A DNA stretch of 64,000 nucleotides, taken from contig CAWBMP010000005.1 in the NCBI GenBank assembly GCA_963790025.1, positions 256,001 to 320,000 of the forward strand, written 5' to 3'. Made by a program: the position numbers and the translations under genes. This DNA comes from Nitrospirota bacterium (GTDB lineage: Bacteria; Nitrospirota; Thermodesulfovibrionia; Thermodesulfovibrionales; Dissulfurispiraceae). Below the pieces are notes generated by a model, which searched no databases, was not told where the DNA came from, and was given only the letters and a program-made list of their open reading frames with translations. Shown piece after piece: positions 18,744 through 64,000 of this stretch; positions within the stretch are counted from its first letter, which is position 1, and every line of letters begins with the position of its first letter.

Positions 18744-19949
18744 TTATTGTGGTACAGGGCAGCGTGGGATTTCTGCCTGCTCCTTTCTTACCGGCATATA
18801 CCACAGCCAGCCGTCCACTATCATCAGTATACCTGCAGCAATTAAAAAAGCGTCGATGGCTGTCAGAATGCTGAAGCCGAAATAGTGCATGAGACCCAAC
18901 CCCAGGCTGGCAAAGGAAACTCCGGTCCTGATAAAGGCGAGTCCGGTCCTCGCCCTGGCATATAAAGTACGATAGCATGCGGCAACTGTACGTTGTGCGG
19001 CCAGAACGTTTCTTTCCCGCGCAAGATGGGTCCGTTCCCTGCTGGAAGGCGACGGATACAAAATAGTGCAGTGATCCGCAAGAAAATCGCCGAGACGGGC
19101 AAGCATAGTCTGCCCTGCCGGCAGATGAGTTCCGGGTTGGTCAATAAAATGATAGTTCTCAAGAAACTGGATCGTTGCCGCCGTTACTTCGACAAGCGTC
19201 TGGTCTCCGGGCGGCTTCATCCTTGACTTCCTTATTTTCAAATAACCGGTCAACCCGAAAAGAGCAAGAAAAAACCCTCCGGCCATAACACCATATAAAT
19301 AAAAAACACGACTCGATTTAAAAGAACGAATCAGTATATCAGATACAGCAATAAGCCGCAATCCCCATCTGAGGAAAGAAAAGTCAGTCCTGGCCATTGC
19401 CAGGTCGGTCCTGTAGCACGCCAGCCGCGTCCTCCATTGCGCCATAGTATTGCGCCAAAATGCAAGTCCTGTCCTTTCGGTCCCGATAAGATAACCTGGT
19501 TTTTCATGCAGAAAGTCCTGGATGAACCATTGTATGTCCTCTCCAAGCGCCACCCAGAATTCATATTTTTCAGCTTTAATAAACTTTTTTACCTCATCAT
19601 GCACTGTGGGGTCTGACGGATTATTCGCAGCCACAACCACCGTATTGCCGTCTCTAATGATCGGAAACCACTGATTTATCGACAGTCGTTCACCATCCAA
19701 ACCTGCGAGCAGTTCCGGCGGTATCGGCATTCGCTCATCATATTCCACAAAAGGGCACTGGTAATAATTTGAAAGTGCCTGCAGCAGAATATGCTTTGGG
19801 ATGCGATACTCCGCGATAAGTACACTTTCCAGATCGATACCTCTGGCGGAAGCGGCACGCTCGGCTTCACAAAGTCTGTCCCGGGTCAGTACGCCCCAAC
19901 TGATCAGGTCATTAAACTTATTGGAAGCGATACTATCAACGCTCATCAT
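18744..19949 (-). CDS. GspE/MshE-N-like domain plus two DUF202-like repeats, membrane protein
   Basis: LISWGVLTRDRL...LESVLIAEY...CPFVEYDE; two ERTxLA...RTGLAFxRTG units, each followed by TM helices; start overlaps the upstream stop. Confidence 0.75.
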   Translation of the reverse strand: MMSVDSIASNKFNDLISWGVLTRDRLCEAERAASARGIDLESVLIAEYRIPKHILLQALSNYYQCPFVEYDERMPIPPELLAGLDGERLSINQWFPIIRDGNTVVVAANNPSDPTVHDEVKKFIKAEKYEFWVALGEDIQWFIQDFLHEKPGYLIGTERTGLAFWRNTMAQWRTRLACYRTDLAMARTDFSFLRWGLRLIAVSDILIRSFKSSRVFYLYGVMAGGFFLALFGLTGYLKIRKSRMKPPGDQTLVEVTAATIQFLENYHFIDQPGTHLPAGQTMLARLGDFLADHCTILYPSPSSRERTHLARERNVLAAQRTVAACYRTLYARARTGLAFIRTGVSFASLGLGLMHYFGFSILTAIDAFLIAAGILMIVDGWLWYMPVRKEQAEIPRCPVPQ

Positions 19950-21642
19950 TACTGAAGACCACCTTTTTCCACGAACGGGCCGGTATGCCGTAATCAGGGA
20001 TAATAAGCTCCATCTGTCCATAACAATACGGGTACTGCTTTCTTATTTTTTCTGCCGGAAAATGCCAGTAAAACCCATCGGCAATCAGTGTCAATCCAAC
20101 CACTATCAGCAACATGTTAAATATAGACCATGCAGCATTGCCCGCACCAAAGAAAACCATGAGTTCCATGCCGACGGCAGTTATGCCTACTCCTGTTCTG
20201 ATAAAAGCCAGTCCGGTCCTTGACCGTGCCATTACTGTCCGCAGTCGCGCCATCACATTTCTCCGGTCGGCGAGCATGGTCCTTTCGAGAGCAAGCCCTG
20301 TAGTAGCCCATATACCCGGTGCATGGGACGGCCTGACAGGCGGAACACACTTGTAATCCGAAGCGGGATGTTTTAACGCCGGAGGAAAAACAAAATCCCA
20401 AATAGTCTGTTTAGTCTGCGTATTCCTGACTGCATTAAAACTTATAGAACCGGCACGGCGGCCCGGGAGATACCAGTAAAAACCCTCTGCAGCCATGGCA
20501 ATACCGCTAATAATAAGAGCGACATCAAAGAAAGTCCACGGTCCTGGACGGAACTGACGCAATAACCCAATACCGAATCCTATAAAGGCAACACCTGTCC
20601 TCGAAAAAGCCAATCCGGTGCGCGCCCTTGCCATTTTTGTTCTGTAGCATGCCAGCACAGTCCTCTCCTCGGCAAAGTCCGTTCTATCGCTGGCAAGGAA
20701 CCTGCGTCTCATAACCGGGGAGAGGTTGTTCCAGTACGAACGCAGGACTGCCGCATCTTGCACATAGCCGGTACGTTCAAAGAGAGGATTGTCACCAGGA
20801 TTCACGACTTTAAGAACAGTGGTCCCCCATGTCGCTTCAGTACCTCCGAAATCATATAATTTTCTCCCTGATTTTCGGGTAGGGATATACCACCGCAGGC
20901 CGTCGACGGTCATAACCACGCCTGAAATGAACAGTGCCGCTTCAAATACCGTTAATAGCCCTATACCTAAAATTCTGAAAAGCACGATAGCGACCGCCAT
21001 AAAAGATATCCCGGTCCGGAGAAAGGCCAGTCCGGTCCTTCCTTTTGCCAGGGACGTTCTGGTACATGCCAGCAAAGAGCGCCTGTCCGCCAGAAATGTT
21101 CTCACTTTTGCAAGGGGCGTCCTGCCTGCCGCTGGGGGGAAATGAGGATTGACATCAAAGTTGTGTTCTATGATCCTTACAACGTCTGAAGGCAGAGCAA
21201 TAACGAAATGGATATTCTCAACTCGAAGTTTATCTTTAATGTCCTGAATTACATCAGGGTCGGAAGGATCATATACAATCACTTCGGCCTGCATTCCCCC
21301 GACGTAATAGGGAAACCAGAGTTTGCGTTTCAGGTCCTCCATATTCAGACGCATGGTAATAAAATAGGAAGACAAGCCGCTCTCATCATATTCTATAAAA
21401 GGGAAATCGAGATGCCTGGTGAATGCCATCCGGGAAGGTATCACAGTCTCGTCGTATTCGACAAAAGGACACATGTAAAATTCGGAAAGGCAGAACAATA
21501 TCTCGTGTTTGGGAACTCCCTTTTCAATCAAACATTCCTCAGGATACTTTCCCGCAGCAAATGAATCCCTTATGCAGTTATCCAGTTCATTTTCGGTGAG
21601 GATGCCTCTTCTTATAAGCCGTTCAAATTTATTGTTTAACAT
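19936..21642 (-). CDS. GspE/MshE-N-like domain plus three DUF202-like repeats, membrane protein
   Basis: RLIRRGILTENEL; three (D/E)R(T/S)xLA...RTGLAFxRTG units, each with a TM hairpin. Confidence 0.78.
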   Translation of the reverse strand: MLNNKFERLIRRGILTENELDNCIRDSFAAGKYPEECLIEKGVPKHEILFCLSEFYMCPFVEYDETVIPSRMAFTRHLDFPFIEYDESGLSSYFITMRLNMEDLKRKLWFPYYVGGMQAEVIVYDPSDPDVIQDIKDKLRVENIHFVIALPSDVVRIIEHNFDVNPHFPPAAGRTPLAKVRTFLADRRSLLACTRTSLAKGRTGLAFLRTGISFMAVAIVLFRILGIGLLTVFEAALFISGVVMTVDGLRWYIPTRKSGRKLYDFGGTEATWGTTVLKVVNPGDNPLFERTGYVQDAAVLRSYWNNLSPVMRRRFLASDRTDFAEERTVLACYRTKMARARTGLAFSRTGVAFIGFGIGLLRQFRPGPWTFFDVALIISGIAMAAEGFYWYLPGRRAGSISFNAVRNTQTKQTIWDFVFPPALKHPASDYKCVPPVRPSHAPGIWATTGLALERTMLADRRNVMARLRTVMARSRTGLAFIRTGVGITAVGMELMVFFGAGNAAWSIFNMLLIVVGLTLIADGFYWHFPAEKIRKQYPYCYGQMELIIPDYGIPARSWKKVVFSNDER

Positions 21643-21730
21643 AGTATATAAAGCCCAGAAACTTCATTATTATAAATTATAGCCATATTAATAATAAAAT
21701 TTTTTCTCTTCCGGGCAAGGCTCCATATTT

Positions 21731-23374
21731 TTAGCCGCTCTCATCGGTCCTGAACACCACCTTTTTCCATAAACGGGCCGGTTTGCCATAATCAGGTATT
21801 ATAAGTTCCATGTCTCCATAGCAGTAGGGGTACTGCTTTCTTATTTTCTCGGCTGGGATGTGCCAATAGAAACCATCAGCAATAAGAGCCAATCCAACCA
21901 CTATCAATAATATGTTGAATATCGTCCACGCGATATTGCCGGCACCGAAATAAACAAGGAGTTCCGTTCCTACCGCAGATACGCCTACCCCGGTTCTGAC
22001 CAGCGCCAGACCGGTCCTTGACCGGGTCATTACCGTTCGCAGCCTTAACATTACGTTTCTCCTGTCGGCAAGCATAGTCCTCTCAAGAGCAAGGCCCGTA
22101 GTAGCCCAGATCCCCGGCTCACTGGACGGCCTGACGTTCAGAACGCACTTGTAGTCAGAACCTGGTTGCTTTAGCGCATGAGGAAAGGCAAGGTCCCATA
22201 TATTCTGTTTACCCTCTGATTTGCGGACCGACTTGAAGCTCATCGAACCGGCACGGCGGCCCGGAAAATACCAGTAAAAGCCCTCTGCCGCCATTGCGAG
22301 GCCCACAGCGACAAGCGCTGCATCAAAAAAAGTCCAGGGACCGGGACGGAACTGGCGTAATAGCGCAATGCCGAACCCGATAAAGACAATTCCAGTCCTT
22401 GCAAATGCCAACCCTGTGCGCGCCCTCGCCATTGTTGTCCATAAGCACACGTGCGTCGTCCTTTCCTCGGCAAAATCGGTCCTGTCGCTCGAAAAAAACC
22501 TGCGCCGCATTACCGGAGACAGATTGTTCCATCGGGAACGCAACAACGCCGCACCTTCCACGTGACCTGTTCGTGTAAAAAGAGGGTCGTCACCGGGGTC
22601 CGTCATTTTAAGGACAGTAGTTCCCCAAGTCGGTTCAGTTGCAGTAAAATCAAAAACTCTTCTCCCTGTTTTTCGTGCGGGGATATACCATAAAAGGCCG
22701 TCATAAATCATGAGTATGCCCGAAATGAACAATGCCCCTTCAAAAAAAACCGAAAGCCCCATACCGAAAACCCTGAAAAGAACAACCGCGATGGCCATAA
22801 AAGCCATACCGGTGCGTATAAAGGCCAGTCCGGTCCTCCCTTTTGCCAGGGACGTCCTGGTACAAGTCATCAAAGAGCGCCTGTCAGCCAGAAATGTCCT
22901 CACTTTCGCCAGAGGCGTCCTGCCGGCTGAGAATGGGAAATGAGGATTCACATCAAAGTTGTGTTCGATAATCCGAATAAGGTCCGAAGGCAGAGCAACA
23001 ATAAAATTGACCTCCCGAACTCCAAGTGTGGCTTCGACATCCTCCATGACATCAGGGTCGAAAGGATGACACGCAATAACCTCGGCACGGCCTTTGCTGA
23101 CGGCGAGAGGAAACCAGAGATTTCGTTTGAGTTTCTCCATATTGAGACGCCTGGTGAGAAAAAAAGAGGCGATGACGCTCTCATCATATTCGACAAAAGG
23201 ACAACTATAGAACTCAGTCAGCGAGAACAATATCTCGTGTTTCGGGACACCCCTTTCAATCAGCCATTCTTCAAGAAGCCTACCTGCCGCTGCGGACTCT
23301 CTGATATTTTCATCCAATTCCTTTTCGGTGAGAATACCATTTTTTAAAAGTCTCTCGAATTTGTTTTTTAACAT
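21731..23374 (-). CDS. GspE/MshE-N-like domain plus three DUF202-like repeats, membrane protein (close paralog of 19936..21642)
   Basis: Colinear with and highly similar to the adjacent gene over its whole length. Confidence 0.78.
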   Translation of the reverse strand: MLKNKFERLLKNGILTEKELDENIRESAAAGRLLEEWLIERGVPKHEILFSLTEFYSCPFVEYDESVIASFFLTRRLNMEKLKRNLWFPLAVSKGRAEVIACHPFDPDVMEDVEATLGVREVNFIVALPSDLIRIIEHNFDVNPHFPFSAGRTPLAKVRTFLADRRSLMTCTRTSLAKGRTGLAFIRTGMAFMAIAVVLFRVFGMGLSVFFEGALFISGILMIYDGLLWYIPARKTGRRVFDFTATEPTWGTTVLKMTDPGDDPLFTRTGHVEGAALLRSRWNNLSPVMRRRFFSSDRTDFAEERTTHVCLWTTMARARTGLAFARTGIVFIGFGIALLRQFRPGPWTFFDAALVAVGLAMAAEGFYWYFPGRRAGSMSFKSVRKSEGKQNIWDLAFPHALKQPGSDYKCVLNVRPSSEPGIWATTGLALERTMLADRRNVMLRLRTVMTRSRTGLALVRTGVGVSAVGTELLVYFGAGNIAWTIFNILLIVVGLALIADGFYWHIPAEKIRKQYPYCYGDMELIIPDYGKPARLWKKVVFRTDESG

Positions 23375-51160: not shown

Positions 51161-52306
51161 ATGAATGCAGCTGATACAGGTGTGAATAAACGGGCAACCG
51201 GTAAAGGTTCCGTTACCGCAGTGGCTGGACTTTTTCTAAAACTGGGCACAATCGCGTTTGGCGGCCCTGCGGCTCATATCGCAATGATGCAGGATGAGGT
51301 TTGCCGTCGACGGAGATGGGTGAGCGAACAGAGATTTCTGGATCTTTTGGGAGCAGCCAACCTGATTCCGGGCCCGAGTTCGACCGAGATGGCCATTTAT
51401 CTCGGCTACGAAAGGGCCGGATGGAAGGGTCTCATTGCGGGTGGAGTTTGCTTTATCCTACCAGCCATGCTCATTGTATTGGGTTTTGCATGGGCCTATG
51501 TTCAATATGGGACGACGCCCCAGGTTGTCTGGCTTCTGTACGGAATCAAACCCGTTATTGTTTCGATCATTGTTCAGGCATTATGGAAGCTTCTCCAGAC
51601 TGCGGTCAAGGGCCCATTGCTGGCATGCGCCTGCTTGGTGGTTCTCGGTTTGTATCTTTCAGGATTCAGCGCTGTTGCTCTTATTTTCGGAAGTGGGTTA
51701 CTGGTCATGGCAATTAAGAATGGCCGGCAGAGTTGGCGTTTGGGAGGAAGCAAGGGTGCTGCATTGGTTCCTGTGCCGTTTGCGCTGATGACCTTATTCC
51801 TAACCTTCCTGAAAATCGGCTCAGTGGTGTTCGGGTCGGGTTACGTGCTACTTGCATTTCTGCGCGATGATTTTGTTTACAACCTGCGCTGGCTTACCGA
51901 TCATCAAATTCTGGATGCAGTTGCGGTAGGACAGTTCACGCCGGGCCCCGTGTTCACAACCGCCACATTTATCGGTTATGTCTTAGGCGGTATTAAAGGA
52001 GCTATGCTGGCGACTCTGGGAATCTTCCTTCCCTCTTTTTTTCTAGCAGCGGCAGTTTTTCCCTTTGTCGGAATCCTGCGCAGCTCGCGCTGGGCAAGCG
52101 CTTTTTTGGATGGAGTCAATGTGGGTGCACTGGGCCTTATGGCAGGAGTTACGTTCCAGTTTGGGAGGGCTGCGATAATAGACATGCCTACTTTGGCGCT
52201 GGCCTTAATTTCAGTCTTTGTCATGTTCCGATTCAGGATTAACACTGCCTGGATCGTACTGGCAGGCGGCATCGCAGGACTGGTTTTCAAGCTCTTTTTG
52301 GTTTAA
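51161..52306 (+). CDS. chrA: Chromate efflux transporter (long-chain CHR)
   Basis: FLKLG..AFGG, IPGP; second repeat FLKIG..VFG, TPGP. Confidence 0.93.
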   Translation: MNAADTGVNKRATGKGSVTAVAGLFLKLGTIAFGGPAAHIAMMQDEVCRRRRWVSEQRFLDLLGAANLIPGPSSTEMAIYLGYERAGWKGLIAGGVCFILPAMLIVLGFAWAYVQYGTTPQVVWLLYGIKPVIVSIIVQALWKLLQTAVKGPLLACACLVVLGLYLSGFSAVALIFGSGLLVMAIKNGRQSWRLGGSKGAALVPVPFALMTLFLTFLKIGSVVFGSGYVLLAFLRDDFVYNLRWLTDHQILDAVAVGQFTPGPVFTTATFIGYVLGGIKGAMLATLGIFLPSFFLAAAVFPFVGILRSSRWASAFLDGVNVGALGLMAGVTFQFGRAAIIDMPTLALALISVFVMFRFRINTAWIVLAGGIAGLVFKLFLV

Positions 52307-52326
52307 TGTAAAACTGGTCCACTAAT

Positions 52327-52752
52327 TCATGCTTCTTCACCGTGAGGGACATCTCGCATGCGTTTGGTTGCACTGCGCTTGTGTTTCACCTCAAGTCTGC
52401 GCTCCCGTGATCCCCTGGTGGGCGAGGTCTTCCTGCGCGGTTTGGGCCGCTCAGCGGCCTTTCGGATGAGTTCGATCAATCGTTCCACCGCAGCCACCCG
52501 GTTCTGCTCCTGGGTACGGAATTGACGCGCTTCGATAACGAGGACGCCGTCTTTGGTCATACGGTTTCCAGCAACTCTCACGAGGCGCTGCCGGACTTCT
52601 GCCGTAAGGGAAGTAGAACGTGCCGCATCAAAACGTAGCTGCACTGCCGTAGCGACTTTGTTGACGTTCTGTCCACCAGGACCCGAGGAACGGACAAAGT
52701 GCAACTCGATCTCGTCTTCATTTATGGAAATATTGTCGGTAACAAATATCAT
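52327..52752 (-). CDS. arfB: Alternative ribosome-rescue peptidyl-tRNA hydrolase
   Basis: RSSGPGGQNVNKV; basic C-terminal tail. Confidence 0.95.
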   Translation of the reverse strand: MIFVTDNISINEDEIELHFVRSSGPGGQNVNKVATAVQLRFDAARSTSLTAEVRQRLVRVAGNRMTKDGVLVIEARQFRTQEQNRVAAVERLIELIRKAAERPKPRRKTSPTRGSRERRLEVKHKRSATKRMRDVPHGEEA

Positions 52753-52803
52753 GCAATCAATATTAACACATTGCGAAAGCCACTATAAGGGTCTGGCTCT
52801 TGC

Positions 52804-52975
52804 GGTAGTGGGTAAGTTTGTTTTTGATCTGGATCACCTGAGTTATCCGTAGTGGGCTGGTAACGCCCAGCCCACATATGGAAAAATGGCTGCCAGAGAT
52901 AATTATCAGTACATACCAGTGACTGGAACCCAAAGACTATTTGAATCCAGAGCAAAAACAAACTTACCCACTATC
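52804..52975. mobile_element. 172-bp MITE with 31-bp TIRs and an 8-bp target-site duplication
   Basis: TIRs GGTAGTGGGTAAGTTTGTTTTTGATCTGGAT / ATCCAGAGCAAAAACAAACTTACCCACTATC; GCTCTTGC duplicated at 52796-52803 and 52976-52983. Confidence 0.85.
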
Positions 52976-53066
52976 GCTCTTGCCTCCCAAACACGAGTTT
53001 TTAGTATATAATCTTTAGTATATAGCCAATATGCTATTACCTGTATGTTAAGAGGGAGGATATCCT

Positions 53067-54698
53067 ATGCTATCGACACGAAAACTTACGGAGTTGCCGT
53101 CATGGAAGGCGCTCGAAGACCACTACCGGAAGATTCAGGGCGTCCACCTTCGGGAACTATTTGCCGGCGATTTGCAGCGTGGCGAGCGATTCGCTGTCGA
53201 AGCATCCGGCATTTACCTTGATTACTCCAAGAACCGCATCACAGGTGAAACCCTTCGGCTTCTTTTCCAACTCGCTGAGGAGTGCGGTCTGCGCGAACGG
53301 ATCGATGCGATGTTCCGCGGAGAGGAAATTAATATTACCGAGAAACGTGCTGTGCTTCATATAGCTCTGCGTGCACCCCGGAATCAGTCGATCTTTGTTG
53401 ACGGTGAAAACGTGGTGACCAAGGTTTACAAGGTACTTGACAGGATGGAGGATTTCGTCAATCGCGTCAGGAGCGGAGAGTGGAAGGGACATACCGGCAA
53501 GCGTCTCCGCAATGTCGTAAACATTGGTATTGGTGGCTCTGACCTGGGTCCGGCCATGGCTTACGAAGCGCTGAAGCATTACAGCTCGCGCGATATGATT
53601 TTTCGTTTCGTTTCGAACGTGGACGGAACGGATTTTACCGAAGCGACGCTCGACCTCGATCCGGCAGAGACCCTTTTTATCGTGTCATCGAAGACTTTTA
53701 CAACCCTGGAGACGATGACGAACGCACACACTGCCCGTCGGTGGACGCTGCAGGCGCTGGGTGACGAGCGTGCCGTAGCGCGGCACTTCGTTGCCGTCTC
53801 AACCAATGCCGAAGAGGTGGCAAAGTTCGGCATTGACACCGCGAATATGTTCGGGTTCTGGGACTGGGTCGGTGGTCGCTACTCGATGGATTCAGCCATC
53901 GGGCTTTCGACCATGATCGCTGTCGGAGCCGAAAACTACCGGGCGATGCTCGCCGGTTTCCATGCTATTGACGAGCATTTCCGCACCGCGCCGTTCGAAG
54001 GGAACCTGCCGGTGCTAATGGGACTGCTCGCTGTTTGGTATAATAACTTCTTCGGTGCGCAGACTGTGGCCGTGCTGCCTTACGACCAGTACCTCAAACG
54101 TTTCCCGGCCTACCTCCAGCAGTTGACGATGGAGAGCAACGGCAAGCACTCAACGATAGACGGCTCACACGTCGATTACGAAACAGGCCCTATCTTATGG
54201 GGAGAGCCGGGCACCAATGGCCAGCATTCATTCTATCAGCTTGTCCACCAGGGGACGAAGCTTGTTCCTTGCGACTTCATCGGCTTTTGCAGAACGCTGA
54301 ATCCTGTGGGCAAGCATCACGATGTGCTTATTGCTAATCTTTTGGCGCAAACCGAGGCTTTGGCATTCGGCAAGACGGAAGATGAGGTCAGGGCGGAGGG
54401 AACACCGGAGTGGCTGGCTCCCCACCGCGTCTTTGAGGGCAACCGTCCTTCGAATACTATTCTCTGCGAGAAGCTGACGCCGGAGATGCTCGGTAAACTT
54501 GTTGCGCTTTATGAGCATAGTGTATTCACTCAGGGAACGATTTGGCTTATTGATTCCTTTGACCAGTGGGGGGTTGAGTTGGGCAAGGTCCTGGCGCAAA
54601 GAATCATTCCGGAACTTGAAAGCGCCGATGAGCCGCAGGCCGGGCACGATAGTTCGACCAACGCTCTTATGCGTCGCTACCGCAGGCTTAAAAAATGA
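53067..54698 (+). CDS. pgi: Glucose-6-phosphate isomerase
   Basis: [39 protein letters not shown]. Confidence 0.97.
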
Positions 54699-57244
54699 GT
54701 GAATCAAAACGAGTCAGCAGTCCCATACACCGATTTCTTCCCTTTGAGGTCGATGGCTTCGATTCTCTTGTAGAGCTTGCCATGGACCTGCGCTTGTCGT
54801 GGGACCATCAGGCCGGCGAGGTATGGCAGCAACTCGATGCGGTGCTCTGGGACCTGACGCAGAACCCATGGGTCGTTCTTCAGACCGTCTCCAGGGACCG
54901 ACTTCAGCGCGTGTTGGATGATGCCACCTTCCGTAAGAAAGTCGATGACCTTTTGCAGGCAAAAAGTGAAGCGGCAGAATCGCCTTCCTGGTTTTCGCAA
55001 AATCATTCGGGTACCCAATTGAACAGCGTCGCTTATTTCAGTATGGAATTCATGTTGAGCGAGGCACTCCCGATCTATTCGGGTGGACTTGGTAATGTAG
55101 CCGGAGACCAGCTGAAGGCTGCAAGCGATCTGGGAGTTCCGGTAATCGGCGTGGGGCTCCTCTATCAACAGGGCTATTTCAGACAGGTAATAGACAGAAA
55201 TGGAATGCAACAGGCCCTCTTTCCCTATAATGATCCCGGTCAATTGCCTATTACGCCTTTGCGTGAGCCCGACGGAGAGTGGCTGCGTTTGAAAGTTGCG
55301 CTTCCCGGTTACTCCATGTGGCTGCGTGCCTGGCAAGTTCAGATAGGTAGAGTGAAGCTCTACCTTCTGGACAGCAATGATCCGGCGAACTTCCCGGCCC
55401 ACAGAGGAATTACAAGCGAGCTATATGGAGGCGGGCCTGAGCTGCGCCTTCTGCAGGAGCTGACACTAGGTATCGGAGGGTGGCGGCTGCTCAACATGCT
55501 CGGCATCAAACCCGATGTCTGCCATCTGAATGAAGGACATGCTGCTTTTGCGGTATTGGAGCGTGCCCGGTTTTTTATGCTGGAGACAGGGCAACCTTTC
55601 GAAGTTGCACTTGCCGTTACTCGTGCCGGCAACCTTTTCACTACCCATACAGCGGTCGCCGCAGGTTTTGATCGCTTTTCTCCTTCCCTTATGGAGCAAT
55701 ATCTCGGCAGATACGCCGGTGATAGGCTGGGCATCCCGTTCCATGACCTATTGGCCCTGGGCCGCCAGAACCCCAATGACTCCACGGAATACTTCAATGT
55801 GGCCTATCTCGCCCTGCGAGGGAGCGGGGCGGTCAACGGGGTGAGCCGATTACACGGACAAGTCAGTCGACGCATCTTTCAGCCCCTCTTTCAACCTTGG
55901 CCGGAGGTCGAAGTGCCGGTCGGGCATGTTACTAACGGGGTCCATATGCCGACCTGGAATTCAGAGGAGATCGAAGTACTTTGGACAGGGGCCTGTGGAA
56001 AAGAGCCCTGGATGGGTACCGTGGAAACCCTGGAAGAGAACATCCGTAACGTTTCCGATTTTATGCTCTGGAATTGCCGCACATCCGCCCGTGAGTCTCT
56101 GATCAAGTACATGCGGGAACGGTGGTCCCGGCAGGTGGCTGTATCGGGAGGGACGCATGAAGAGATTGAAAATGCCAGAAATATATTCGATTTCAACACA
56201 TTGACACTGGGCTTTGCCCGCCGTTTTGCGACCTACAAGAGGCCTAATCTGCTGCTGCATGATCCTGAACGGTTCCTTCGCATACTCTGCGATTCTCAAC
56301 GTCCCGTGCAGCTTGTCATTGCGGGCAAAGCGCACCCTGACGATCACCAGGGACAGGCCATGATTCAGCAATGGACCCAGTTCATTCGCCGGCCTGAAGC
56401 GCGCAATCATGTAGTGTTTATCAGCGACTACGATATGTTGTTGACCGAACGTATGGTGCAGGGCGTGGATGTCTGGGTCAATACACCGCGGAGGCCCTGG
56501 GAAGCATGCGGAACGAGCGGCATGAAGGTGCTTGTCAATGGAGGAATTAATCTTTCAGAACTTGATGGCTGGTGGGCTGAGGCCTGGTCGCCGGAAGTCG
56601 GGTGGGCCTTGGGTGACGGGAAGGAGCATGGTGATGACCCTGCCTGGGATGCTGTCGAAGCTGAGGCACTCTACACTTTGCTCGAACAAAATGTGGTCCC
56701 CGAATTTTACTCGCGTGATCAAAACGGCATCCCTGCCGCCTGGGTAACGCGAATACGTGAGAGTATGGCCCGGCTGACGCCGCGTTTTTCCGCCAACCGG
56801 GCTGTCATAGAATATACCGAGCACTACTACATTCCTGCTGCCGAGGCATACCGCGAGCGTGCCTCGGGAAAATGCGCTGAGGGTGCTCAGATAGTGGAGT
56901 GGCAGCATAATCTGGCACAGAAATGGACCAATCTGCGCTTTGGGGAAATTAAAATTGAAACTGACCCGGAACGGCACTTGTTTGATATCCAGGTGTATCT
57001 AAACGGCCTCGATCCCGACTCTGTTCGAATAGAGCTTTACGCGGACGGCTTGGACGGCGGCGACCCCGAGAAGCAGGAGATGATGCGCGGTAAGCAACTC
57101 GTCGGCGCAGAGAATGGCTATACTTACAGCGCGATGGTGCCGGCGACCCGACCGGCTGCAGATTATACAGCGCGGGCGCTGCCTTACCATCCCTGCGTTG
57201 CGGTGCCACTGGAAGCTGATCAAATCCTGTGGCAGCGGTGGTGA
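54695..57244 (+). CDS. glgP: Alpha-glucan (glycogen/maltodextrin) phosphorylase
   Basis: [30 protein letters not shown] (PLP lysine). Confidence 0.96.
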
Positions 57245-57250
57245 GAGTAT

Positions 57251-58543
57251 TTACTTGTCTCTTGATGTCATAAGCAATATGCCTTGTCCCGGTCGCAGGT
57301 CGTACGAGAATGGCGATGGTACATAGTCGAGAGCATATTCCGGAGAGATATCGAGTATTGGAGCGCCCGCCTGAAGATATCCCTGAAGTGACTCTGTATG
57401 GAAATATTGCTTGTTGTAATTGTCTTTATTCAGAATTAAGAGTGATTCTTCATTTGTATAACCTGATGCCTTCCACATAAGCAGAATACCCGGGTTGTCA
57501 TAATGCAGCACAGTTGTGGGGGCCTCCTCCTGGAATACTGGATGACCTGACTTTGCCTTGTTGACGCTTGCTATGAAAGAAGTCAGATCAATGCCTGTTT
57601 CTTCCCAATCTTCAGGTCTGGTTTTTACCACGTGCAACTTCTTGCGGAAGCCGAATTCGAACCCCATCGGCATCATAACGCCGCATGAAAACAGGGCAGA
57701 GAACAGATAGCGTTGTTTGAGCCCTTCGATATTTCCGCCCAATTCTTCGCAGAGCCTGACCGTATCGTGGCTCTCGGGGAAGCTGACGGAAGGGGCTATT
57801 TCCCGTGTAAGGACATATTGTTCCATCAACCATGGGTTGTTGAAGTCCCACCATTTTGAACTGTTGAAAATATAATCGAAACCGGCGGCGGCGGTTTTTC
57901 GTGTCAGGTCGGGCGGGCATCCGAGTGTTTCCGCGAAAAAAAGTGTGTCGGGATATTTTTTCTTTGTTTCGGTGATGAGTCTTTTCCATAGACTTCCGGG
58001 CAGTTGATACGCAGCATCGCACCGGAATCCTTTAAAGCCCAGATCGGAAAGAAAACATATCACGCTGAAAAAGTATTGATAGAGTCCTTCTTTATCTTTT
58101 GTATTTACGTGGTCAAACCTGGCCAGGTCTTTCCAGACCACTTTTTTACCGTCTTCATCTGCAAAGGGATGAGCAATTCGTCCGTCGGCTTCCCAAAGAA
58201 ACCATCCCGGGTGTGATTTTATAAGGTCCGAATCCGTGGAACAATGGTTGATCACCAGGTCCACCATCACCTTCAGCCCGAGTTGTTCTGCAGCCCGGAC
58301 CATATCTTTCACCTGCTCCTGGGGTTTCTTTTCACTTTCAGAGTCAATGAACAGCGGATTGAAATCAAGATAATCCGCTATAGAGTAAAGACTCCCCGAA
58401 GTCCCCACACGCTGGATGGGATTGACAAAAATCCAGTTGAAGCCCATTTCGGATGCCCTCAAAAAATGACTGCCCCAGCCGGTAAACTTTCCTGCCAGCA
58501 GGGGGAAGAGGTTATAGATGATCATTATTTCGGGTTTTTTCAC
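57251..58543 (-). CDS. GH13 alpha-amylase-family enzyme, cytoplasmic
   Basis: DLVINH, GFRCDAA, FAETL, ESHDT catalytic regions; no signal peptide; GTG start overlaps the upstream stop. Confidence 0.88.
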   Translation of the reverse strand: MKKPEIMIIYNLFPLLAGKFTGWGSHFLRASEMGFNWIFVNPIQRVGTSGSLYSIADYLDFNPLFIDSESEKKPQEQVKDMVRAAEQLGLKVMVDLVINHCSTDSDLIKSHPGWFLWEADGRIAHPFADEDGKKVVWKDLARFDHVNTKDKEGLYQYFFSVICFLSDLGFKGFRCDAAYQLPGSLWKRLITETKKKYPDTLFFAETLGCPPDLTRKTAAAGFDYIFNSSKWWDFNNPWLMEQYVLTREIAPSVSFPESHDTVRLCEELGGNIEGLKQRYLFSALFSCGVMMPMGFEFGFRKKLHVVKTRPEDWEETGIDLTSFIASVNKAKSGHPVFQEEAPTTVLHYDNPGILLMWKASGYTNEESLLILNKDNYNKQYFHTESLQGYLQAGAPILDISPEYALDYVPSPFSYDLRPGQGILLMTSRDK

Positions 58544-59607
58544 TGTTTGTTCTCCTTTTTACATGCTTCCAGTACGAGTTGGTGGTTATCACTAAGAACA
58601 GAAAGCCATAAATTCATCCGTTCGGCATTTCTCCTGTTCCTCCAGTGATGAAAGAGGTAAGAGGCGTTTCCGAGCTGGAGCATGCCTTCGGTCGGATGAA
58701 TTTCCAATGAGAAGGAAATGTGGTCCGGACCGGGGAGTTTCATGGATTCTGCGATAACCCTTGAAAGTCCACGCGGTCCGAACATGAGGTCGAGATGCCT
58801 TGCACTCCCGTATTCAAATGGTAACATAATTTTATTCAGAAAACTGAGGTGGTCACTTACGCCAAAAGGGCTGAAGGTCGAGAGCGGGTGTGCATCATGC
58901 AGATGGTAATGCACAGGTTTGCCCAGGCTCCCGACCTCCCGGACCACGCGCAGAACTTCAGCAGGCGAAGCGGCGACCGCCTCCTGAACATCTTTTATTA
59001 CTTCCCGAAGTCCGGGATCTTGGGGCTTCAAAGCACAAACATCTCTTCCCGGGTATTTGCGTGAGTAGATGCGGCTTGCCTGCCAAAGGCCAATATGTCC
59101 TATATCGATGCAACTGCTGATGCGCTCAAGGTCACTTGCTGCCCTGAAAAGTGTTATGAAGATATCAGTCTCAAGCCCTGCAGCGTATTCGATAAAAAGA
59201 TAGGGACTCCCCTTGATATCCTGCAGACGGGATTCCATCTCCTGCAGGACAGTCAAATAATTGTCAAAGCGCGCGGCGATTTCGTTTTGATCATGAATAA
59301 TCAATCCCAGCACCCGGTTTTTGAAGTTTTTCGCAAAATCGAGGACCAGCCTTCGACCGCTTTCCTCGAAGAGGTTGATCCATCTGGGCAAATGCACGGC
59401 AGACGGTGCTTCAGGAGTCGGCTTGAACCCCAAAAGCCGCTCCAGCTCATACGGCGTTTCGGCGTAGAACTCGGGTCCCAGCCCTGCCTCTTTAAATCGC
59501 AGGGAGGCGAGCTGCAAAAGAGCGTCATCGCCGTCAATTCTTTTTTGAAAAAGCCCCAGAACAGGAGGGCAAGTGCTGGGCCCTCGACTGGACAAGATAG
59601 ATTCCAT
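58540..59607 (-). CDS. Hypothetical xylose-isomerase-like TIM-barrel protein
   Basis: Metal-ligand-like motifs FIEY, CIDIGH, HYHLHD, SLEIH. Confidence 0.6.
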   Translation of the reverse strand: MESILSSRGPSTCPPVLGLFQKRIDGDDALLQLASLRFKEAGLGPEFYAETPYELERLLGFKPTPEAPSAVHLPRWINLFEESGRRLVLDFAKNFKNRVLGLIIHDQNEIAARFDNYLTVLQEMESRLQDIKGSPYLFIEYAAGLETDIFITLFRAASDLERISSCIDIGHIGLWQASRIYSRKYPGRDVCALKPQDPGLREVIKDVQEAVAASPAEVLRVVREVGSLGKPVHYHLHDAHPLSTFSPFGVSDHLSFLNKIMLPFEYGSARHLDLMFGPRGLSRVIAESMKLPGPDHISFSLEIHPTEGMLQLGNASYLFHHWRNRRNAERMNLWLSVLSDNHQLVLEACKKENKQ

Positions 59608-62600
59608 CTCCTGAAATTACCCCCTCGATATCCTGTGGACCGCTTAACGCATTTTCCACAAACTTTCCGACTGTCCCCAAACGTCCGACTGTGAGATTTC
59701 TGAAGGACCTGTCCATCGACATCCTGATGCCTGTATAATCGATGGTTTCAGCTGTTATCCCGCCGGAAGGACCGGGCAGCAAGGCATGACTGAAACTTGC
59801 AAAGGACAGCATCCTCACCTCTCCTGTTTCTTTATAGCAGACCGCACGGTAAGGACTGCCTGGAGTCGCAGCTGAAGCCAATGTTTCGCCCAGACCGACT
59901 GCCAGCTCTATATAAATCTCTCCAGGATCACAACTTACCGGATTGCGGGTATTCATGATAAATGAAAGTTCCGGAACGAGCATCTTCTGGATGAGTACAG
60001 CCATTACCGCTCTTTCGTGCTGAATGCCGGTGTTTCTTCTGTTCATGACCGCACGTACGTTCCATAGCGAGGCCCAGACCTTGAGTATTGCAGGAGCAAC
60101 ATCCGAAGGCTGAACATTGGCAACGGAATCGTAGAGTCCGGCCCCGGACGAAACTCTCATGTCTTCACAGTTGGCACTGGAACGGACAATCAACCTATCC
60201 GGCAGCCGTTCATCCCGCGTAAATTCTTTCAAAACTCCGGAAACGATTTCAGCCGGGACCGGAAGGTGATTTATGATGTCCTGCAGTCTTGTCAAAGCAC
60301 CGGCCAGGTCGCTTTGCCTCAGCCTGTTCAAGTTGCCGACCAGTGCCTTGTACTCTCTTTCAAGAGCAGGTTTCGCAGAGAGGCATGTCTCCATCACTCC
60401 AAAGGGAATTACAATTCCCGCTGCTGTTTTAAGTCCGGCATGCTCAAGCCTCGACATTTCTTCGAGCCTGCGCGCCGAGTCAGCTTTTCCGCCCCCGTTT
60501 TCCGGAGTGACCTCTTTAAGAGGCAGTAATTTGACTGCGGAGTTCAAAATTACGTGAGGCGGTTCAATAGGATACGTATTGATGGGAGCTGCAGTAATGC
60601 CGGAAGAAATTTTCAGGCTGACACTTTCCGTAAAGGCATCCAGAGTAACCAATTGACCGGCGAGACCTGTTAACTCCGAAAAAAGCCCCCTGTCCTCGCA
60701 TGCTGCGAATACGACATGGCTTTGACGGGCACGGACGGCAAGGTGAGCAAGATGGGGGATTCCATGAGCAACTATAATACCGGCTATCCATGCCGGAATT
60801 TCCTCATCGCCTTCTGCTCTTTCCAGAAGTGCCACGAACGGTCCGTTATGGCCATCCGATAAATTCCCAAGGCCGCCGGCAGCTACCAGGCGTCCTGAGG
60901 CTTTTCCAGGCACTATTATGTCCCAGGAGGGAAGATTTGCGAGTGTCCGAATACTTTTTCGAAGAAGATCGACGAGTTTTGACACCTGAAAGACAATGTG
61001 GCCCCTGATGTCGGCCTCTCCGAAAACTTTTATTGCATGCCCGGCCACGTCAAGTGCGCGGCCCAGCCTTTCGGCTTTTTCAGGGAAGAGAGATAGAATC
61101 TTATGACAATAATCTTCCGCTAAACGCGAGTATCTGTCGAGCGTGGCTTTGAGACGGATCAATTCCTCATGTAATTCTTCACGGTCAGCGGGGATAAGCT
61201 TTTCAGACCAGCTCTTTAGTTCTGATTCTATGGCCCGGCACTCTTCAGGGTCCAAGCCGCTGAGTCGCAAATTCCGTATAGCCTGCACTAACGAGGATAA
61301 AGCCAATTTCCTGTCCTTAAGAACATCGAAATGATCGCTTAAACGGCCTGCGAGGCGGCTCAGGATGACAAAAGAAAAATCCTCCAGCCCGATGTCCGCC
61401 ATGAGAAACTTCTGCGCCTTAGTTTCGTCTTGAAGTTTCTGCATTTCGCAGAATTGGCCGCGAAGTCCTGTTAAAAGCTCCAACACGGTCAACATTTTTT
61501 GTGGAGTGTCTATCTCCTTTTTGGCCCTGAGAAATGCACTTATAGAATCTGCCGGACCGAGATCGATCTCCTTCTCTATTGCGCTGAGTCGTTCATCGAG
61601 AGTAGCGGCATTGAAAAATTCTTTGAGTTCGCTATGAAAGCGCTTGAATTCCTCAACAAAGGCAGGTGAATAATCGGCGTCAGGGGCGGTTATTTTTGTC
61701 AGCAGGCCTTTGGAAGTGGCAAGGTCTTCCGGACCGGCTGAACGGTGCAGTTTGTTCTGGAGCGTATCTTTGATCTCCTTTTTCAATTCTCCGGGAATGT
61801 CGTTTCTGTGGGCGATGTCCCTTATGCGTGTGAGGGGTTCGGCCCTGGTGAATGCGCTGTCGAAAGAAGGCAGCCACGGGTAAATTTTTCTTATGATAAA
61901 AAAGTTTTCGGGGGTTATTATGTTAGAGAGCCTCCCGTATATCTGCTGCGCCATCTTTGCGTGATGCCAAGGCCGGTGATGCCCACCTTCCTCGCCGCAA
62001 GGGACTTCACCTGTGCCGATAAAACGAAGATAGATAGCTATATAAAGGAGATGTTCGATGTTCAGATCGAAGGTATCGCAGGTCAAAACATCATAAACCC
62101 AGCCGAGCCTGTTCTGCCAACTCAGGAACCTGCGGTTTGCAGCAACGATTTCATTTACAAAATCATCAGAGGCAGGAGTAAAGGCAGAAGTGAAGGCAGA
62201 AGCAGAAGCGGAAGTAGAGGTAGAGGAAGAGTTGGAGTTGATTATTTCGATAAGTCTGGTACGTGCCTCATTGAGCAGGCCTTCCGGCTGCGGCCATTGT
62301 TCGAGGATAATACTTCCCGAAAAGTTGCGTTTGTTCATCCGCTCCATAAAACCGGTTATGCCCGCAGCGTCTTTTCCCGCAGGGCCTGTGAAAATGGGCA
62401 GGTGACTGTCACAGTCCCCGTAGTTTTCGTGCATGTGTATATGAATGACAGGTACTTCCGGATCGAGCAGATCGACAAACTTGAGATAGTCGTTACGGGT
62501 CGCATAATATAAGTTTGCATGACCGAGATCCAGGCACATTCCCACATTGCCGGTCCTTTCCAAACTGCGAAGACTCCTGAACAGTTCATTGAAATCTTGT

Positions 62601-63040
62601 GGCCCGGTATACAAAGTGTTTTCAATTGAGAGTTGGATCCCGGCCTTTGCAAGGCGTTTCCCCAGTGGAGCGATCGCGTCCGCGAAGGCGGCAACCCCTT
62701 TGTCGTTATAAAAATGAATGTTGATAAGCGTTGCACCGATGTCCTGTGCGAACCCGATAGTTTTGGAGATGAGTTTGCCGGCATCTGATATGACAGGATT
62801 TGACTGCAGTGAAGCATGCACAGAGAGTCTGATATCACCAGCGAGAGCTGTGTCCCTTATGAAAATACGTGTTTCTTTGGATATGTCGCTTTCTTCCCAG
62901 CCCGCCCCAGATTCATTTTTGTCCGGAAACCATTCAAAGGCGTCAAACCTGTTAGCCATGGCATATTCGAAAGGCAGCATCAGGGAAGGCGCATGTCGGG
63001 ATGTTTGATTACCGATACGCACCCGCGCTGTTTCAATCAT
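59534..63040 (-). CDS. Phosphoglucan,water dikinase-like protein with N-terminal TIM-barrel domain
   Basis: GGHHRP, LPSF...PLTRIRDIAHRNDIP..LK.EIK.TLQNKLHR.AGPEDL, phospho-His PHLAHLAVRARQ, VRSSANCED...GAGLYDS, QDIEG...VQSR; start at 63040 overlaps the upstream stop. Confidence 0.88.
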   Translation of the reverse strand: MIETARVRIGNQTSRHAPSLMLPFEYAMANRFDAFEWFPDKNESGAGWEESDISKETRIFIRDTALAGDIRLSVHASLQSNPVISDAGKLISKTIGFAQDIGATLINIHFYNDKGVAAFADAIAPLGKRLAKAGIQLSIENTLYTGPQDFNELFRSLRSLERTGNVGMCLDLGHANLYYATRNDYLKFVDLLDPEVPVIHIHMHENYGDCDSHLPIFTGPAGKDAAGITGFMERMNKRNFSGSIILEQWPQPEGLLNEARTRLIEIINSNSSSTSTSASASAFTSAFTPASDDFVNEIVAANRRFLSWQNRLGWVYDVLTCDTFDLNIEHLLYIAIYLRFIGTGEVPCGEEGGHHRPWHHAKMAQQIYGRLSNIITPENFFIIRKIYPWLPSFDSAFTRAEPLTRIRDIAHRNDIPGELKKEIKDTLQNKLHRSAGPEDLATSKGLLTKITAPDADYSPAFVEEFKRFHSELKEFFNAATLDERLSAIEKEIDLGPADSISAFLRAKKEIDTPQKMLTVLELLTGLRGQFCEMQKLQDETKAQKFLMADIGLEDFSFVILSRLAGRLSDHFDVLKDRKLALSSLVQAIRNLRLSGLDPEECRAIESELKSWSEKLIPADREELHEELIRLKATLDRYSRLAEDYCHKILSLFPEKAERLGRALDVAGHAIKVFGEADIRGHIVFQVSKLVDLLRKSIRTLANLPSWDIIVPGKASGRLVAAGGLGNLSDGHNGPFVALLERAEGDEEIPAWIAGIIVAHGIPHLAHLAVRARQSHVVFAACEDRGLFSELTGLAGQLVTLDAFTESVSLKISSGITAAPINTYPIEPPHVILNSAVKLLPLKEVTPENGGGKADSARRLEEMSRLEHAGLKTAAGIVIPFGVMETCLSAKPALEREYKALVGNLNRLRQSDLAGALTRLQDIINHLPVPAEIVSGVLKEFTRDERLPDRLIVRSSANCEDMRVSSGAGLYDSVANVQPSDVAPAILKVWASLWNVRAVMNRRNTGIQHERAVMAVLIQKMLVPELSFIMNTRNPVSCDPGEIYIELAVGLGETLASAATPGSPYRAVCYKETGEVRMLSFASFSHALLPGPSGGITAETIDYTGIRMSMDRSFRNLTVGRLGTVGKFVENALSGPQDIEGVISGDGIYLVQSRAQHLPSCSGAFSKKN

Positions 63041-64000
63041 TTTCAAGACCGGTCTGGGGACGTGATTGCACGACATAATATTGCCCGTTCGAGTAGGCCC
63101 CCTCGATATCCTGCGGGCCACCGAGGGCCTTTTCAACAGATGTGCCGATACCGGCAATCTTTATCAGAAACTCGTTCCGGAAATTAGCGTCCCATACAAG
63201 TGCCTCTTCTGCGTAATCCAGCGTGACTTTAACAGGCTGCGGCAGCATGAAGCTGTCGTAAAGACCCGCACCGGCGTAACCGGCAAGGTCCTCGCCATTT
63301 GAATCCGAACGGAAGATCAGGCCGCCCCCCGAGCACTCAAATAGCTTGCCGGTTGCGTGTTGAATGCCCGGTAAACAGGAATAGAGACCGACACTCTTGC
63401 CCGGCAATGACAGCAGGTGCGGCCCCTGATTCCCCTTTTTGCAGACGAAGCTCAAGGCCCTTCCGGGGTAGTTTGCAACCAGTGCCTCCCCGAGTCCCAG
63501 GACAACTTCAGCATAAACTTCGTCGTTAGCGTTAGTGAAAGGGTTCACAGTATGAATCACAAAACTATAATCAGCTTCAACTATCCTCTGGATAAGGACA
63601 GCCATCATTAGGTCCTTATGAGGGACACCGCTTGCCTTACGGCTTAAGTACGCCCTTTCATTCCACTTCGAGCCCCAAACGCGCTTGATGCAGGTCCAGG
63701 CGTCATCCTGTCCTTCCTGCCGGCTTTCCGGTCCACTTTCCGGCAATCCGAGTCCGGCATTTTCCATCACTGTGCGAAGCGAGGAACTGAATTCATCAGG
63801 GGCCTCAAGGGCCAGTATTATTTTTTTTATTTCTTCCAGTAAAGCGGTATACGACATTGCCGTTTCTTCATTTAGCCGCCGTGCCAGCTCATCATGCTGT
63901 CCAGCGAGTTCTTTATTGACGGGATCGCTGAGGACCTTGTCAAAAACCCCAAAAGGCAAGGCTGCCGAAGCAGGGAGGTGTATCCAATCCGGCAGTTTGC
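63033..64000 (-). CDS. Alpha-glucan,water dikinase (GWD/R1)-like protein, C-terminal part; N-terminus beyond the window
   Basis: ALPFGVFDKVLSD, AWTCIKRVWGSKWNERAY, ADYSFVIHT.NP, YPGRALSF.CKK, IFRSDSNGEDLAGYAGAGLYDS. Confidence 0.88.
   Translation of the reverse strand, partial: KLPDWIHLPASAALPFGVFDKVLSDPVNKELAGQHDELARRLNEETAMSYTALLEEIKKIILALEAPDEFSSSLRTVMENAGLGLPESGPESRQEGQDDAWTCIKRVWGSKWNERAYLSRKASGVPHKDLMMAVLIQRIVEADYSFVIHTVNPFTNANDEVYAEVVLGLGEALVANYPGRALSFVCKKGNQGPHLLSLPGKSVGLYSCLPGIQHATGKLFECSGGGLIFRSDSNGEDLAGYAGAGLYDSFMLPQPVKVTLDYAEEALVWDANFRNEFLIKIAGIGTSVEKALGGPQDIEGAYSNGQYYVVQSRPQTGLEND

Follow-up and report, generated by a model that had tools for sequence, protein, structure and literature searches.

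Can a bacterium phosphorylate an alpha-glucan with the two dikinases known from plants, and which further proteins would take part? This question is raised by one end of a 64,000-nucleotide stretch of DNA from a Nitrospirota bacterium (GenBank assembly GCA_963790025.1, contig CAWBMP010000005.1, positions 256,001 to 320,000). This whole stretch is referred to below as the window (G000:C5:256001-320000); the genome from which it is taken measures 3.45 Mb in 5 contigs and is 98.8% complete and 1.2% contaminated. The window encodes orthologues of glucan,water dikinase (GWD) and phosphoglucan,water dikinase (PWD), together with two triosephosphate isomerase (TIM) barrels, the first of which is fused to PWD, and a GH13 alpha-amylase-family enzyme. 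Comparison of the sequences shows that the system is real, conserved across phyla, and a variant of the known eukaryotic system; it plausibly includes a new enzyme class. By analogy with the plant enzymes, there is good reason to expect that the dikinase family phosphorylates an alpha-glucan in these bacteria.

Two dikinases of the plant type

An earlier note on this DNA had described the two dikinase genes as overlapping, and the frame coordinates bear this out: at 63033-63040 on the minus strand, ATGATTGA holds the downstream ATG within an 8-nt overlap with the upstream TGA. The upstream frame runs without interruption from the edge of the window to 63033, and the N-terminus of GWD, sought in the adjoining part of the contig, was recovered from the genome (start at C5:322230, whole protein 1065 residues). 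All the GWD1/R1 and PWD/GWD3 signature motifs named in the note were located in the two proteins, and the domain order that it gave is the one observed, with the phospho-His domain (PF22973) preceding the ATP-grasp domain (PF01326) in both.

The GWD protein consists of a CBM45-like domain (PF23166, residues 25-139), a central domain (156-579), the phospho-His domain (583-696, with His646), and the ATP-grasp domain. It is 39% identical to Solanum dulcamara GWD over 1095 columns, and its residues 156-579 match the crystal structure of the StGWD1 central domain (9HA9, E 1.7e-82). Its nearest named relatives are Nitrospirota, including Dissulfurispiraceae, at 67-75% identity. His646 aligns with the catalytic H992 of StGWD1, and this phospho-His is kept in every aligned row, bacterial (69/69) and eukaryotic (60/60), the latter being taken from 117 long eukaryote-type matches. 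The equivalents of StGWD1 E900, R904, and W931 are likewise invariant across the GWD rows, and E553 and R557 are kept in the window copy. A role of E900, E901, and R904 as residues facing the His has been put forward as a proposal (PMC13553574).

In the PWD fusion protein, PF01261 (32-258) is followed by PF22973 and then PF01326. The PWD core is 39% identical to an algal PWD (EukProt Mesen1) over 905 columns and 41% identical to Cucurbita PWD, and its phospho-His is invariant (75/75 bacterial-type and 28/28 eukaryote-type rows); the GWD and PWD proteins of the window are 26% identical to each other. The bacterial PWD is a variant architecture rather than a canonical PWD: a scan of 43 proteins found CBM20 in 27 of them, PF01261 in 5, and both in none. 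A search for structures returned none of PWD. A separate protein of 2496 residues (P0270) has a signal-like N-terminus and a dikinase-like stretch (858-1489) that is 28% identical to the PWD core.

GWD and PWD fall into separate clades (support 100), with one window protein in each, in both the 253-row and the 84-row tree (the latter using 84 of 345 available rows). The GWD clade of the 84-row tree comprises 35 rows, with a value of 100 in the Shimodaira-Hasegawa-like approximate likelihood ratio test (SH-aLRT). Models of phosphoenolpyruvate (PEP) synthase and rifampin phosphotransferase score at about one tenth of their cut-offs (86 vs 883 bits and 120 vs 999 bits), and an identity with these families was rejected on the domain order and on these low scores. 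The orthology to GWD and PWD rather than to these enzymes, which had been read from the motifs, is upheld by trees, scores, structure match, and alignments alike. A chimeric contig is unlikely, as the G+C of the two dikinase genes (0.506) accords with the window range (0.45-0.545) and two PF22973 matches are found in each of 9/9 same-genus genomes.

The origin of the enzymes is less plain. The trees come from quick searches and are without red-algal, cryptophyte, or Goniomonas GWDs; their nameless proteins were assigned to bacteria if they carried a barrel and to eukaryotes if they carried CBM20 or grouped with named ones, and 30 were checked by name. Bacterial dikinases fall outside the plant and green-algal clades and, as far as these trees show, were not acquired recently from plants or green algae. 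In the free trees, where GWD and PWD root each other, eukaryotic sequences are placed among bacterial ones, with eukaryotic GWD beside a Gemmataceae-containing clade (SH-aLRT 97); under LG+G4, eukaryotic GWD and eukaryotic PWD each form one group (93 and 94). The approximately unbiased (AU) test does not reject bacterial monophyly for GWD (p 0.451); with PWD, holding the bacteria together improves the tree by 40.9 log units (p 0.954). In view of these tests, the nesting of eukaryotes within bacteria that is seen in the free trees is not claimed. The trees make bacterial and eukaryotic dikinases neighbours without fixing the direction of transfer; a bacterial origin of eukaryotic GWD and PWD is about as likely as not.

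Two TIM barrels that accompany the dikinases

The locus had been read earlier as a complete two-step operon acting on the storage glucan of the organism. The dikinase orthology has stood and the link to storage glucan is supported, but the operon proved larger: its module also takes in a GH13 gene and the two TIM barrels. Both barrels are predicted to adopt the xylose-isomerase/endonuclease-IV-type TIM barrel fold (predicted local distance difference test, pLDDT, 94.0 for barrel 1 and 91.8 for barrel 2), and they are distantly related to each other (hhalign 95.4%). In barrel 1, H75, H109, E140, D171, H174, H202, D211, H213, and E247 are invariant in 55/55 rows. H109, E140, D171, and H174 align with H109, E145, D179, and H182 of Escherichia coli endonuclease IV (Nfo); a fifth and a sixth ligand were aligned to M. 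tuberculosis Nfo and all nine to MJ1311. With its predicted (beta/alpha)8 fold and nine ordered metal ligands, barrel 1 is endonuclease IV-like. The top rows of its fold search are MJ1311 (Z 25.3, root-mean-square deviation 2.6, 238 aligned), a viral apurinic/apyrimidinic (AP) endonuclease (Z 24.2), and sugar epimerases (Z ~22). The zinc ligands of Nfo include H182, H216, D229, and H231. The three-zinc site of endonuclease IV has nine ligands, and H69, H109, E145, D179, and E261 are named among them (PMC5636811).

In barrel 2, H72, H105, E140, D168, H171, H235, D252, H253, and E302 are invariant in 30/30 rows, with the Asp that precedes the last His displaced by one residue, giving adjacent Asp-His vs Asp-x-His. 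Searches of Pfam, NCBIfam, and PDB with its sequence gave zero matches, and the top rows of its fold search are tied (Z 18-19). Its Atlas matches consist of "hypothetical" clusters and one PF01261 cluster at 0.90. Actinomycetota is the commonest phylum among the Atlas clusters that resemble it (0.97).

The module recurs widely. A scan of GTDB genomes confirmed 129/163 candidate stretches, and 80 loci were kept. By record titles these are mostly Nitrospirota and Desulfobacterota-type, the others being Scalindua, Verrucomicrobiota, Acidobacteriota, Nitrospinota, and Chloroflexota, with at least six phyla in total. Barrel 1 starts no more than 250 nt from the GWD end in 52/63 loci that have at least 1 kb downstream. 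Where at least 6 kb is available, all four genes are found in 25/51 loci, and barrel 2 is present in 28 of the 29 with PWD vs 1 of the 22 without it. The fusion orders seen are barrel 1-PWD, PWD-barrel 2, and barrel 2-GH13, the last in 5/80 related loci. The order dikinase-barrel-dikinase-barrel, in which both pairs are homologous, suggests a duplicated two-gene module. In the window, a Ser/Thr/Ala-rich linker of ~22 residues (62170-62240, minus strand) joins barrel 1 to the PWD core, the kind of stretch to be expected where two genes have fused. In the close relatives L003 (13077-17850), L004, L005, and L007, barrel 1 is a separate gene (307-322 residues) and 0.8-6 kb of other sequence stands ahead of the PWD core; in L004, PWD lies in two frames.

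The pairing extends to whole genomes. Among 301 genomes of the same phylum, PF22973 occurs in 18 (10 with one GWD-type match and 8 with two), barrel 1 in 16, all within the 18, and barrel 2 in 5, all within the 8. In the Scalindua phylum (171 genomes), above-cut-off dikinases and barrel 1 occur in the same 7, and one further genome has a weak match below the cut-off. A Desulfobacterota-centred sample of 231 genomes holds a dikinase in 6 and barrel 1 in 5 of these; the sixth carrier has only PWD, cut by the contig start, and then barrel 2. Overall, barrel 1 is found in 28/31 dikinase-bearing genomes vs 0/672 others, in samples whose centres were chosen carriers and whose kin are non-independent. 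PF22973 was found in 0/14 control genomes. In one genome (G039), GWD and barrel 1 co-occur although they lie ~650 kb apart, and the pairing is kept when unlinked. One family (f4) of the same order has a GWD-type gene and barrel 1 in 9/9 genomes, often on separate contigs or far apart, and barrel 2 was found in 0/9 of the genomes sampled.

What might the barrels do? In plants, phosphate blocks further degradation of the glucan until SEX4 and LSF2 remove it (PMC12892837). The corresponding SEX4/LSF2/laforin-type phosphatase domain, PF00782, was found neither in the operon proteins nor in the whole genome, and, as the genome is without such an enzyme, one metal barrel per dikinase is a natural phosphatase candidate. 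It may be, and we hold this tentatively, that each dikinase has its own trinuclear-metal TIM-barrel phosphatase, of a class unrelated to SEX4 and laforin. Barrel 1 would then pair with GWD, probably for C6 phosphate, and barrel 2 with PWD, probably for C3. There are precedents in the superfamily: an archaeal member has 3'-phosphatase activity (PMC2770678), and CbiR hydrolyses a non-DNA phosphoester (10.1101/2020.09.02.280537).

It is also possible, on a footing that falls short of probable, that the dikinases phosphorylate an alpha-glucan and that the barrels are not phosphatases at all. They would instead salvage phosphoglucosyl products as isomerases, epimerases, or lyases of sugars or sugar phosphates, or be substrate-binding modules that replace CBM20. 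The same superfamily includes many isomerases and epimerases (10.1101/2020.09.02.280537), the fold searches of both barrels fail to single out endonuclease IV, barrel 2 has its Asp and His adjacent, and Actinomycetota is the commonest phylum among its look-alike clusters. However, the nine invariant His/Asp/Glu residues of barrel 1, in endonuclease IV order, exceed the need of a pure binding module, and the presence of one barrel with each dikinase, in a genome where a phosphatase of the dual-specificity (DSP) family was not found, also speaks for phosphatases.

Substrate, mechanism, and competing readings

The surroundings of the dikinases point to storage glucan, the module being found beside glycogen genes in several phyla. 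The neighbours among the 80 loci include a GH57 branching enzyme (17), DUF4912 (13), GlgA (11), and GT4 (11), followed by a second GH57 (7), phosphorylase (6), and GlgB (5). The genome under study has glgC above the cut-off, two GlgA-like genes, GlgB, a GH57 branching enzyme, five phosphorylase-like matches, and a 700-residue GH13 protein whose GlgX/isoamylase type was assigned by eye; candidates for the glgA, glgB, and isoamylase genes that the earlier note had proposed to look for are among these. Gene neighbours and genome content together support its claim that the dikinases act on the organism's own storage glucan. This substrate should be cytoplasmic, because a hydrophobic N-terminus was found in neither dikinase.

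The preferred reading is of an operon of four translationally coupled genes (GWD - barrel 1/PWD - barrel 2 - GH13) by means of which the cell modifies and mobilises its own cytoplasmic alpha-glucan. In the GWD mechanism, a His receives the beta-phosphate of ATP; the domain that carries this His then turns towards the central domain, where a glucosyl hydroxyl takes up the phosphate (PMC13553574). The bacterial dikinases would work as in plants, the His being phosphorylated with the beta-phosphate of ATP under release of AMP and inorganic phosphate, and the His domain then swinging to the central domain where glucosyl residues are phosphorylated. By orthology only, GWD would probably act at C6 and PWD probably at C3. 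The phosphorylation may loosen packed chains for the GH13 enzyme and the phosphorylases. Less surely, the barrels would afterwards remove or process the phosphate.

Several points weigh against this reading. The glycogen that bacteria ordinarily make is soluble and does not require a dikinase, and 283/301 genomes of the own-phylum sample are without a dikinase match. In the bacterial PWD, CBM20 (PF00686) was not found at E <= 0.01, and PF01261 stands in its place. The window GWD has Ala554 (codon GCA) at the position of StGWD1 E901, which is Glu in all 129 other aligned GWDs (69 bacterial, 60 eukaryotic) and in 113/119 near homologues, the other 6 being outside the pattern. This copy may be impaired by the exchange, or the base may be an assembly error. 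Codon 554 corresponds to G000:C5:320569-320571, beyond the window; the contigs of one DNA sequencing run, which may be the source sample, cover 27/30 bins of window 52000-64000, and the codon is out of their reach. Among the sequencing runs listed as holding this DNA, none was of RNA. Finally, in four genomes of the Scalindua phylum the cassette reads GT4-GWD-barrel 1/PWD-barrel 2, and neither GH13 nor glg genes lie within 20 kb of it, the GT4 being the sole carbohydrate-active neighbour over that distance.

On account of these four cassettes, an acceptor other than storage glucan is conceivable, such as short malto-oligosaccharides or the carbohydrate of the neighbouring GT4, and the dikinases would then belong to metabolite handling or regulation and have nothing to do with granule surfaces. 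The GT4 that goes with the cassette in 11/80 loci and the want of CBM20 in the bacterial PWD agree with this idea. It is nonetheless unlikely, as the acceptor-binding central domain and the CBM45-like domain are conserved with plant GWD, and the commonest neighbours are branching enzyme, GlgA, and GH13 genes. The GT4 family itself (L005:20157-21317, L088-L091) has no close copy in the genome under study, the best being 30% identical, and is a possible glucan synthase.

That the genes are relatives of PEP synthase or rifampin phosphotransferase, or else contamination or a recent arrival from plants with no role in bacteria, is very improbable: NCBIfam does give only PEP synthase, RPH, and PigC-type models, via the shared ATP-grasp domain, but their scores are far under the cut-offs, the genes are intron-free with 4-8 nt overlaps and, by record titles, occur in six phyla or more, and the bacterial sequences stand outside the plant and green-algal clades.

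Locus, significance, and comparison with known systems

The features of the operon and its downstream neighbours are listed below. The phosphorylase gene that converges on the operon is present in 6/80 related loci. Upstream of GWD, a B12-binding radical SAM/DUF4070 gene (G000:C5:322235-323806) ends 4 nt before the GWD start; it is found in only 4/80 related loci and hence is not counted as part of the module. Promoter-like and terminator-like sites in G000:C5 308500-325000 (15 vs 15.4 expected and 21 vs 17.2 expected) are uninformative. Elsewhere in the window, an 866-residue gene product (14184-16784, minus strand) weakly matches the ATP-grasp query and is probably a PEP-synthase-family protein, and two adjacent genes (19936-23374, minus strand; 568 and 547 residues) with very similar N-termini are likely a tandem paralogue pair.

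Table 1. Dikinase operon and neighbouring genes, in window coordinates
Feature	Position	Strand	Remarks
3' part of GWD orthologue	63033..64000	-	whole gene G000:C5:319033-322230, 1065 residues
Barrel 1/PWD fusion	59534..63040	-	1168 residues; phospho-His His766, C-terminal ATP-grasp
TIM barrel 1 (residues 1-270 of PWD fusion)	62231..63040	-	candidate glucan phosphatase; pairs with GWD
TIM barrel 2	58540..59607	-	355 residues; without Pfam or NCBIfam match; pairs with PWD
GH13 alpha-amylase-family enzyme	57251..58543	-	430 residues; 4-nt overlap between its start and the barrel 2 stop
Alpha-glucan phosphorylase (TIGR02094)	54695..57244	+	convergent on operon; context, not conserved part
Glucose-6-phosphate isomerase (pgi)	53067..54698	+	context; in 1/80 related loci

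It has been stated that GWD occurs only in starch accumulators (Cenci et al. 2018, PMC6260743), and bacterial GWD homologues are nonetheless included in a tree legend of that paper. The automatic annotation of JGI also names many of these bacterial proteins alpha-glucan or phosphoglucan, water dikinase. These homologues and names set a limit to the earlier reading; as to the operon, no characterisation of it was found, a literature search by title and abstract start having returned no paper on a bacterial GWD/PWD operon or on the barrels, with most subscription journals outside its coverage. Among recent works, a StGWD1 structure paper of 2026 leaves bacteria unmentioned (PMC13553574), a review of the same year describes the machinery of prokaryotes as unknown (PMC13666283), PMC13011383 treats bacterial glucan phosphate as speculation, and an alveolate preprint of 2026 regards GWD as marking starch in eukaryotes.

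With a conserved bacterial GWD/PWD operon, three questions become testable: whether its carriers store a glucan that is phosphorylated or resembles starch, whether the barrels represent a novel type of glucan phosphatase, and from where the plant enzymes came. Moreover, compact bacterial dikinases would be useful for structure work and for the enzymatic modification of starch. If the proposal is true, glucan phosphorylation operates as a complete and reversible cycle in several bacterial phyla; the tandem duplication would have occurred in bacteria, and eukaryotes would later have taken GWD and PWD, swapping the barrels for CBM20 and DSP phosphatases.

Five known systems invite comparison. PEP synthase, PPDK, and rifampin phosphotransferase share with the window dikinases the ATP-grasp and swivelling His domains and the beta-phosphate chemistry, whereas the window dikinases have the reverse domain order and a glucan-type central domain. 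Plant and algal GWD1 (EC 2.7.9.4; StGWD1/R1, SEX1) has the same order of CBM45-like, central, phospho-His, and ATP-grasp domains, and the bacterial protein resembles it end to end, with the catalytic His and the equivalents of E900, R904, and W931. However, the bacterial protein has one CBM45-like domain instead of two, is without PF23229 and a transit peptide, bears Ala at the E901 position in the window copy, and is encoded by a gene coupled to that of a TIM barrel. The first Cys of the plant redox motif is also replaced in it. The disulfide of plant GWD is described in PMC12892837. Plant and algal PWD/GWD3 (EC 2.7.9.5) likewise agrees with the bacterial protein in its core (39-41% identity), clade, phospho-His, and ATP-grasp residues, and differs in that its N-terminal CBM20 is replaced by the PF01261 TIM barrel.

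The reversible starch phosphorylation cycle (GWD, PWD, SEX4, LSF2; laforin) has in common with the bacterial module two dikinases, amylolytic enzymes, and, by hypothesis, two phosphatases. SEX4, LSF2, and laforin are dual-specificity phosphatases, in contrast to this genome, where PF00782 was not found. The endonuclease IV/AP endonuclease 2 superfamily (Nfo, CbiR, MJ1311) shares with the barrels the (beta/alpha)8 fold and, with barrel 1, the ordered His/Asp/Glu metal ligands, and it has members that hydrolyse phosphoesters on DNA and cobamides. Identity to its solved members is 16-21%, and the CbiR score lies far under its cut-off (24 vs 105 bits); unlike these members, the barrels are tied to glucan dikinases.

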